Source of the DNA: Prevotellaceae bacterium | GTDB taxonomy: Bacteria; Bacteroidota; Bacteroidia; Bacteroidales; UBA932 | Direction of reading: 5' to 3' | Length of the DNA stretch: 44,464 nt | Assembly (NCBI GenBank): GCA_031258415.1 | Contig: JAIRMW010000136.1 | Location: forward strand, 1-44,464 | Shown: positions 28,458-28,540 of the stretch, in pieces | Layout of the letters: each line of letters opens with the position of its first letter | Position numbering within the stretch: position 1 is the stretch's first letter | Position numbers and translations under genes: made by a program | Notes under the pieces: generated by a model | Database searches by the model: none | What the model was told of the DNA's origin: nothing | The model's input: only the letters and a program-made list of their open reading frames with translations

Positions 28458-28540
28458 ACACACACACACACACACACACACACACACACACACACACACA
28501 CACACACACACACACACACACACACACACACACACACACA
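28458..28540. repeat. (AC)41 dinucleotide microsatellite
   Basis: An uninterrupted 83-nt acac...aca run counted from the coordinate lines. The pyrimidine/purine alternation extends from 28455 to 28541. Confidence 0.97.

Follow-up and report, generated by a model that had tools for sequence, protein, structure and literature searches.

The largest contig (GenBank accession JAIRMW010000136.1) of a metagenome-assembled genome (MAG) of a Prevotellaceae bacterium (assembly GCA_031258415.1, hereafter G000; 1.84 Mb in 166 contigs, 68% complete, 54% GC) carries a long AC dinucleotide tract between the altronate dehydratase gene uxaA and a SusC/SusD gene pair. This contig was analyzed over its entire length of 44,464 nt, which we refer to as the window, and all genes and features described below for the window lie on its forward strand. 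A LacI-family regulator (25684-26790; Pfam LacI and Peripla_BP_4) constitutes the upstream member of the uxaA unit and is followed by uxaA itself (26820-28316; Pfam SAF, GD_AH_second and GD_AH_C, E 2e-100), whose homologues are named altronate dehydratase or altronate hydrolase. Beyond the tract lie a gene encoding a SusC-like TonB-dependent transporter (28767-32120; Pfam Plug and CarbopepD_reg_2), which we propose to be the regulated gene, and a gene encoding a SusD-like protein (32141-34252; Pfam SusD_RagB and SusD-like_3). Scanning the uxaA-SusC interval revealed no Bacteroidetes -7 box (TAnnTTTG, + strand), no sigma-70-like promoter and no terminator, and SusC and the leader that precedes it are therefore probably carried on the uxaA transcript.

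Tandem Repeats Finder delineates the tract as a perfect (AC)41.5 repeat at 28458-28540 (period 2, 100% matches, zero indels; local context ...GCATGGCTGT(AC)41A TTACTGGGG...), which starts 141 nt past the uxaA stop codon and ends 226 nt short of the SusC ATG at 28767. All other dinucleotide runs of the 1.84-Mb assembly measure 12 nt or less, and the length and uniqueness of the tract far exceed what chance would produce. The original prediction for this locus had called an uninterrupted 83-nt AC run extraordinary, a judgment borne out both by the repeat analysis and by the genome-wide uniqueness of the tract, which presents itself as the perfect, long and chance-improbable simple-sequence repeat typical of a contingency locus. 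Among the 45 AC-type tracts of the motif family described below, it is the second longest.

The concern that such a tract might be an artefact or the seam of a chimera could be addressed by means of orthologous loci in related genomes. The congener G008 aligns end to end with a 2-kb query from the window at 76% identity and displays the order uxaA - GCATGGCTGT(AC)11.5 - SusC, its tract beginning at the identical base as in the window. A third relative, whose uxaA is 84% identical and which is represented by two independent assemblies (JGI 3300042618 and Logan SRR14710901), displays the order LytB-LacI-uxaA-leader-SusC, with LacI and uxaA arranged as in the window, and holds at the same place a short interrupted tract, ACACACACATTACACATACAC. 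The tract is thus found at one base in three species with conserved flanks, as 41.5 units, as 11.5 units and in a short interrupted form, and the GC content and base composition are even on either side of it. This synteny in three species, together with the uniform composition on both sides, excludes a chimera or artefact to the extent that sequence by itself can. The idea that we are dealing with a neutral microsatellite or an assembly artefact devoid of function is barely credible: the MAG is fragmented, all carriers of the family are MAGs and long repeats are hard to assemble, but the orthologous position in three species, with two independent assemblies for one of them, the strict association of the tract with a motif, the non-random frame and terminator statistics and the presence of mismatch repair genes all speak against it. 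Synteny is also conserved across the tract with no sign of recombination, which disfavors the recombination hotspot envisaged in the original prediction.

More distant relatives (L003, which is contig C1 of genome G011, L138 and L139) have 55-88 nt between uxaA and the next gene and carry no leader, motif or tract; in G011 the next gene is SusC. The leader of approximately 360 nt is therefore a lineage-specific insertion added in one subclade. Scans of metagenome contigs with a locus-specific flank and with the subfamily motif gave zero matches, as did an exact-protein look-up of the window uxaA, and the third orthologue was obtained through homologue look-ups. As a separate observation on uxaA, a 2217-nt gut metagenome contig from ENA (L137) encodes a 680-aa uxaA-like product with GD_AH_second and GD_AH_C each present twice, a possible internal duplication or misassembly.

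The tract is situated inside a predicted open reading frame (ORF). In the window as assembled, an ATG at 28330, 14 nt past the uxaA stop codon, opens an 83-aa leader ORF (28330-28581; MTQRTYKK...IRMAV(HT)13H ITGAAYRRFAREI*) which runs through the tract and stops at 28579-28581, in what we term the short frame. The position of this ATG is kept in G008 and in the JGI/Logan orthologue, that is in three of three species, and there it opens ORFs of 110 and 111 aa, both ending 41 nt short of the SusC ATG; the 111-aa ORF was annotated as a gene by the source (JGI/Logan) pipeline. Two other frames traverse the tract of the window: long frame 1 (28410-28733; ...ANPHGC(TH)n...) remains open until 34 nt before the SusC ATG and corresponds to the frame of both orthologous leader ORFs, and long frame 2 (28376-28729) remains open until 38 nt before it. 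The stops of the three post-tract frames are located at 28581, 28729 and 28733 (+41, +189 and +193 from the tract), and G008 likewise possesses one short and two long frames (+11, +177 and +181), the third orthologue having one long frame. As assembled, the leader ORF of the window follows the short frame, unlike those of both orthologues, which follow a long one, with the reservation that the unit number of an 83-nt repeat is not fully trustworthy. A 1-nt indel causes the sequence adjoining the tract to be read as ...IRMAV(HT)n in G000 and as ...ANPHGC(TH)n in the orthologues. Any AC unit count can be read as (His-Thr)n, and the number of units therefore sets only the downstream frame; in silico, a change of one unit shifts the frame of the ORF holding the tract.

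Three predicted hairpins, conserved in three species, are found between the short and the long stops. Stem-loop A (28599-28655; outer stem CGTATTGTG/CACAATACG) lies 3' of the short-frame stop and within both long frames, and RNAalifold comparison of G000 and G008 detects one compensatory and two one-sided changes. The GC-rich stem-loop B (28671-28691; GTCGTAAG/CTTGCGAT) comprises 8 pairs, of which 4 carry a one-sided change while all remain paired, and is kept in the third orthologue. Stem-loop C (28703-28733) is formed by AACTTAC...GTAAGTT (28703-28725), continues into UUUUAAAUAAAUAA, where every frame meets a stop codon, and is invariant in the three species; modeled as a weak stem of 7 A/U-rich pairs and not called as a terminator by the scan, it would nevertheless be the best candidate attenuator in the window. 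Closer to the tract, the palindrome TTTCGCGCGCGAAA (28563-28576) has a CGCGCG core, and a CGCGCG box after the tract is conserved in the orthologues and in the Bacteroidales subfamily A described below. The original prediction had placed this palindrome correctly, 22 nt 3' of the tract, as it had CATCTTTG (28639-28646). As a separate observation, RNAalifold pairs the CGCGCGAAA box at 28569-28577 with GUUUUAUGC at 28762-28770, which includes the SusC start codon, with one compensatory change between G000 and G008; such a pairing, if the model is right, could sequester the start codon.

We propose, with a probability of about 0.64, that the (AC)41 tract is the slippage-prone frame selector of a slipped-strand phase-variation switch, located in a translated leader ORF between uxaA and SusC/SusD. 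Translation of the leader would start at the ATG at 28330, pass the conserved 17-nt motif that adjoins the tract and then the tract itself. In the short frame the ribosome would depart 41 nt past the tract, ahead of the hairpins, and the expression of SusC/SusD would drop. In the long frames it would travel approximately 190 nt, over the three hairpins, to the cluster of stops 34-38 nt before the SusC start, and would melt the hairpins, shield the RNA from Rho or terminate near enough for re-initiation, so that SusC/SusD would be expressed. Replication slippage by one AC unit would toggle this state, and the length of the tract would make the toggling frequent. The expression and toggling steps are modeled on the pil1 system of Streptococcus gallolyticus, discussed below, and on the canonical terminators present in other members of the family; in Bacteroidota, translational coupling, re-initiation or Rho polarity may contribute too. 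Contingency or phase variation was among the roles suggested in the original prediction, and it is the one that gains support from the frame change per unit, the variation of the tract between species, the open frames and the surface-exposed targets.

Two features beyond that prediction came to light, namely a conserved motif adjoining the tract and the existence of a family of such loci. The motif, GCAAATCCGCATGGCTGT in the window (28440-28457; 17-nt family consensus GAAAVCCGCRTGRYTGT), directly precedes the tract. A similarity search retrieved approximately 18 additional long AC tracts, ranging from 14 to 108 nt (the 108-nt tract belonging to G008); six congeners carry them, as does one genome from a different family of the order, and 20 of 20 AC tracts found by tract similarity alone have a sequence close to CCTCCGGAAACCCGCRTGGYTGT on their 5' side (16 near-exact, 4 with a diverged 3' half). 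When 400 genomes of the order were searched with a tract-free motif pattern, the motif was found to be followed by (AG)n in other families. An exact scan with the pattern CCGCRTGRYTGT(AV)7, using one genome per species for approximately 185,000 species, added 58 further loci with (AC)n or (AG)n, all of them in MAGs and spanning Bacteroidales/Bacteroidia (several labelled 'Prevotellaceae bacterium'), uncultured Clostridia, Gastranaerophilales, a 'Lactobacillales' MAG and a Syntrophales MAG. A single Clostridia genome may hold as many as nine copies, the AC and AG types coexist in one genome, and repeat number across the family ranges from 7 to 54 units. To judge from these sequences, the window holds one member of a multi-copy, cross-phylum family of cassettes located before surface-protein genes.

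The association between motif and tract is strict in both directions. The motif precedes every AC or AG tract of the family (68 distinct instances); conversely, a search for the 16-nt motif in 41 relatives gave 18 matches as compared to 0 for a reversed control, and the noncoding copies always lead into a tract or a decayed tract. Conservation extends to positions -16 to -13 (AAAC), which were outside the search pattern, each of the three A's being conserved in 58-66 of the 68 instances and the C in 42. The constraint acts on nucleotides: Arg is encoded by CGC without exception, AT-rich Clostridia included, the motif varies at second but not at third codon positions, and the frame through the motif differs between orthologues. 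We tentatively consider it possible that the 17-nt motif serves a portable phase-variation cassette, shared across phyla, as a dedicated cis element that creates, anchors, maintains or reads the tract. Its partner would be either universal or novel, such as a pausing RNA polymerase, the ribosome, a repair or replication factor or an RNA-binding protein. A mechanistic role is conceivable since in Haemophilus a cis RNA element beside a repeat of the 5' untranslated region (5'-UTR) can be required for changes in repeat number (PMC12721329).

Rfam 15 reports no family over the leader, motif or tract, either at the gathering threshold or at E<=5, inspection by eye disclosed no pairing partner for the motif, nor any pairing of motif or tract with terminator arms, that was consistent across subfamilies, and IMG/VR contains 0 viral matches to motif plus tract. 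Mimicry of 16S rRNA was considered on account of GCATGGYTGT, which equals a 16S stretch, and was discarded as the local alignment score of 20 compares to a shuffled mean of 18 and a maximum of 31. In the literature that we searched there is no account of this motif or of AC/CA-repeat switches at Bacteroidales polysaccharide utilization loci (PULs), although absence there is not proof, and this motif-marked family of repeat switches is apparently undescribed. In one relative only, DUF805-type RNAs (RF02914 and RF03081) were detected at 2462-2496 and 2562-2629 of locus L017 (G006:C25), approximately 400-500 nt 3' of its AC-tract leader and before a small exported-protein gene.

The interchange of AC and AG bears on the DNA-level explanations of the tract, namely helical phasing relative to a SusC promoter, Z-DNA or a topological insulator, or a recombination hotspot. 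Alternating AC/GT is able to form Z-DNA, and the CGCGCG box is conserved 3' of the tract in several members. (AG)n, however, is not a Z-DNA former, yet the same motif precedes it in other members, even within one genome, and Z-DNA is therefore unlikely as a shared principle. Rotation of upstream DNA relative to a promoter, a mechanism suggested in the original prediction, is not supported, as no promoter consensus flanks the tract, which lies inside an ORF whose frame changes with unit number; the proposed -7 box CATCTTTG is part of the conserved stem-loop A and is not kept as TAnnTTTG in the orthologues. The cassette has a fixed orientation to the downstream gene, and its open frames are indicative of RNA and translation. 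With synteny intact across the tract in addition, we regard an explanation at the DNA level as very unlikely.

It is also conceivable that motif and tract are the footprint of a small mobile or templated element, the motif being its end and the dinucleotide run a stuttered tail, with regulation as a secondary matter. The motif always adjoins the tract and is conserved across phyla while all else differs, many copies occur per genome, and the related genomes with 55-88 nt after uxaA lack the cassette altogether. Against this stand the stable position in three species, the constrained orientation and distance to genes and the absence of IMG/VR copies, and the surroundings of the loci showed no transposase, reverse transcriptase, target-site duplication or terminal repeat. 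We hold such an origin to be distinctly unlikely.

The leaders of the family allowed us to ask what is conserved besides the motif. The Clostridial leaders are small ORFs, preceded by a Shine-Dalgarno sequence and starting with an ATG, that encode ...(I/V)AE(T/N/S)RM(A/V)V followed by (HT)n or (ER)n. In Bacteroidales subfamily A, a consensus -7 box (TAnnTTTG) and an ATG are followed by exactly 126 nt up to the tract, and this segment contains no stop and no indel in 7 of 7 paralogues. At 29 of 48 loci, at least one post-tract frame is open to within 45 nt of the next gene or into it, compared to 11.0 expected from composition-preserving shuffles (0 of 100,000 simulations reached 29). The stops of the leaders are concentrated around the start of the next gene, between 23 nt inside it and 40 nt before it, and in some loci (L063, L069 and L105) the leader is fused to the gene. 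Substitutions are flat over codon positions, both before the tract in subfamily A (266/263/253) and after it (20/16/20), and the peptide is therefore not conserved, the pattern to be expected if translation as such, and not its product, is what counts. A conserved peptide (...SGNPHGC(TH)n or ...ETRMVV(HT)n) was ruled out by these flat substitutions together with in-frame TGA codons in some members, the differing frames and the invariant third positions. The sequences thus indicate that the openness of the frame, not the peptide, is what is conserved.

A role of the product, in which the His-Thr repeat peptide would itself be functional, for instance in metal binding, or its His and Thr codons would form an amino-acid-sensing attenuator like the his and thr leaders, is highly improbable. 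Every (AC)n frame does encode (His-Thr)n, classical attenuators are likewise built from a leader ORF with a terminator after it, and in-frame peptides of approximately 30 aa are found in Clostridia (L080, L096 and L108). Nevertheless (AG)n, encoding Glu-Arg, replaces (AC)n after the same motif, no conservation is seen at the amino-acid level, repeat number varies from 7 to 54 and the targets are transporters and surface proteins rather than genes of His or Thr biosynthesis. A classical his/thr attenuator was rejected on the grounds of these downstream genes and of the Glu-Arg variants.

Terminator-like hairpins, defined as a stem of 8 or more pairs with a T tail, were detected after the tract at 32 of 63 loci, compared to 10.3 expected, with stems reaching 13-21 bp, and they lie beyond the short-frame stops and within or just past the long frame. 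In the Clostridia MAG BRZ_KF, for instance, stops at +4, +12 and +38 are followed by a 19-bp terminator beginning at +45, and at locus L103 stops at +30 and +38 precede a 17-bp terminator (+119 to +160) and a long stop at +172. The nine dispersed copies of BRZ_KF__bin28 (L087, L090, L092, L107 and L109-L111 among the loci) have stops at +4/+12/+38 and a 15-21-bp terminator from approximately +45, and the translation of their +1 frame ends in a conserved tail, G(D/S)LLEKINRRNI*.

The downstream genes encode SusC (four cases), BACON and Big_2 lipoproteins, cargo proteins with the C-terminal domain of the type IX secretion system (T9SS), BspA-LRR, PKD, F5/8C and SpaA-domain proteins and proteins with pilin-like (prepilin-like) N-termini; these targets, surface-exposed or interaction-related, are typical of phase variation. 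Other sets of orthologues or paralogues with near-identical flanks differ chiefly in the tract (16/26/32, 22/28, 68/38, 24/36 and 50/42/14 nt). G000 and four relatives possess MutS and MutL, which rules out the loss of mismatch repair as the cause of the long tracts; given these proteins, long tracts may be needed for useful switching rates. Decayed tracts are fixed in the long or gene-fused frame (L105 and L135). At L105 (Clostridia MAG RGIG5862), motif copies at 565, 2012 and 4395 on the minus strand accompany three tandem paralogues with LRR/Listeria-Bacteroides repeats and prepilin-like N-termini; two of the tracts are decayed (ACAAAAAAACACACACAC) with leaders fused to frames of 670 and 421 aa, and the third, still (AC)8, is out of frame.

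A further possibility is that the tracts are unstructured RNA elements, serving as ribosome standby site or translation enhancer, as a landing pad for an RNA-binding protein or for Rho loading, and that length tunes strength without any frame switch. Neither (AC)n nor (AG)n can self-pair, and the 83-nt tract, being 50% C and 0% G, has the C-rich, G-free, rut-like composition associated with Rho loading. CA-repeat tails placed 5' of a gene strongly raise translation via ribosome standby, most of all at 16-18 nt (Sterk et al. 2018, PMC5934652), and lengths of 16-18 nt also predominate among the Clostridial tracts, nine paralogues having the very same tract. The tracts are however located inside ORFs and not before a structured start, the one in the window being 226 nt away from the SusC start, and this explanation accounts neither for the frames open to the next gene, nor for the terminators past the short stops, nor for the variation of the tract in close orthologues. 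We consider it unlikely.

Several points weigh against the frame-selector proposal itself. Translation of the leader is a prediction made from sequence, no hairpin of the window is a canonical terminator according to the terminator scan, and the step from frame to SusC expression in the window is argued by analogy. Variation in tract length is seen between species, and it is heterogeneity within a population that defines phase variation; the assembled unit number of the 83-nt repeat, and hence the 'short' state, may be wrong. Forty-one units are far above what a frame switch needs, and the nine paralogues in BRZ_KF__bin28 are all exactly (AC)8AG, which is odd for tracts that switch independently. 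The nucleotide-level conservation of the 17-nt motif beside the tract is left unexplained by a frame-switch model. Finally, the frame and terminator statistics pool paralogues and orthologues, so that P values are overstated, although the effect size is still large.

Apart from the AC tract, the G000 lineage is unusually rich in short tandem repeats. The assembly contains 303 tandem-repeat arrays, 85 with period 7 and many with periods 9, 14, 18 or 21 (GAGTTAT, CCATTAA, TCGAGCA and AGTTAGAGT; in the window for example at 1919-2131, 36997-37094, 37141-37281 and 42869-42965), mostly intergenic and frequently near gene starts or contig ends. At locus L119 (G004:C215), which has a short (AC)5.5 tract, TGAACAA heptamer repeats are found between the -7 box region and the leader, so that two kinds of repeats coexist in one leader.

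If our proposal is correct, uncultured Bacteroidota of the gut and the environment, Clostridia and other phyla share a modular repeat-in-leader switch acting on PULs, adhesins, T9SS cargo and pilins, and hidden population heterogeneity is flattened to one consensus by short-read MAG pipelines. Leader ORFs and frame states would then matter for annotation when PUL expression is predicted, and the conserved motif offers a simple sequence handle to find such switches in any genome. It also raises the question of why a repeat switch would need a 17-nt signal: if the motif is indeed a cis element, this would be a repeat switch with its own recognition signal, undescribed for simple-sequence contingency loci.

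To our knowledge, phase variation in Bacteroidales is known as DNA inversion, and simple-repeat switches are known mainly from a few pathogens. Bacteroides invertible promoters (invertons) phase-vary capsules, SusC/SusD-like proteins and S-layers, and they share with the present locus the bacterial order and the class of target genes. The AC-tract locus, in contrast, has no flanking inverted repeats or recombinase, and the switch would operate by replication slippage; a Bacteroidales inverton was discarded as only weak inverted repeats, in coding sequence, occur around 27900-29100. Replication-slippage switching of Bacteroidales PULs is not described in the literature searched.

In Helicobacter pylori, CT/AG dinucleotide repeats are located in the 5' coding or signal-peptide region of the outer-membrane genes sabA, oipA and hopZ (SabA, PMC2715451). 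Both there and here, a dinucleotide repeat near a translated 5' end switches, or would switch, the frame leading to a surface protein, and the tracts of L063, L069 and L105 similarly reside in an N-terminal extension ahead of the signal or prepilin region. Most members of the present family, including the window, differ in carrying the tract in a separate upstream ORF. We know of no conserved tract-flanking motif in H. pylori. In Haemophilus influenzae hmw1A, a heptamer repeat in the transcribed 5'-UTR forms an RNA hairpin processed by RNase III, which is needed for changes in repeat number (PMC12721329). The resemblance lies in the interplay between a repeat, transcribed as part of the leader of an adhesin gene, and a neighboring conserved cis element, which sets a precedent for flanking elements that influence repeat dynamics as well as expression; the hmw1A repeat is however untranslated and acts by hairpin length, whereas the present family conserves frames and leader ORFs and no partner of its motif was found. 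The standby sites formed by CA-repeat tails are likewise unstructured CA/AC repeats in mRNA, and their optimum of 16-18 nt equals the commonest Clostridial tract length, but these are synthetic tails 5' of a structured ribosome binding site, whereas the present tract is inside an ORF and variable in length.

The closest parallel is the pil1 locus of Streptococcus gallolyticus, in which a leader-peptide gene, its frame determined by 22 GCAGA repeats, works together with transcription attenuation (Danne et al. 2014, PMC3894217). There, a short peptide ending 39 bp before a terminator results in low expression, and longer peptides end in or beyond the terminator, the ribosome then preventing hairpin formation so that expression is high (PMC3894217). 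The present family differs from pil1 by its dinucleotide unit (AC/AG), by the adjoining 17-nt motif, by its many copies per genome and by its presence in several phyla, including Bacteroidota, which do not use Shine-Dalgarno sequences; the hairpins of the window are not canonical terminators, and pil1 was demonstrated experimentally whereas the present family is known from sequence. Many long frames in Bacteroidota end at, overlap or fuse with the gene start, and translational coupling is therefore suggested as well. The architecture is nonetheless the same as in pil1 (and pil3): a small ORF ahead of the gene, equipped with a start codon of its own (the ATG at 28330 in the window, a Shine-Dalgarno sequence and an ATG in Clostridia), contains a repeat with a unit length not divisible by 3, one frame stops well before a hairpin and the others stop in or beyond it, a layout found at the level of the family with respect to terminators. 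The tracts are long in both cases (22 x 5 = 110 nt in pil1, 83 nt in the window), the sequence of the leader peptide is irrelevant and the target is a surface structure, and in Clostridia the present family is even found ahead of pilin-like genes, with canonical terminators. If our reading holds, the pil1-type mechanism, so far the curiosity of a single species, would be widespread.

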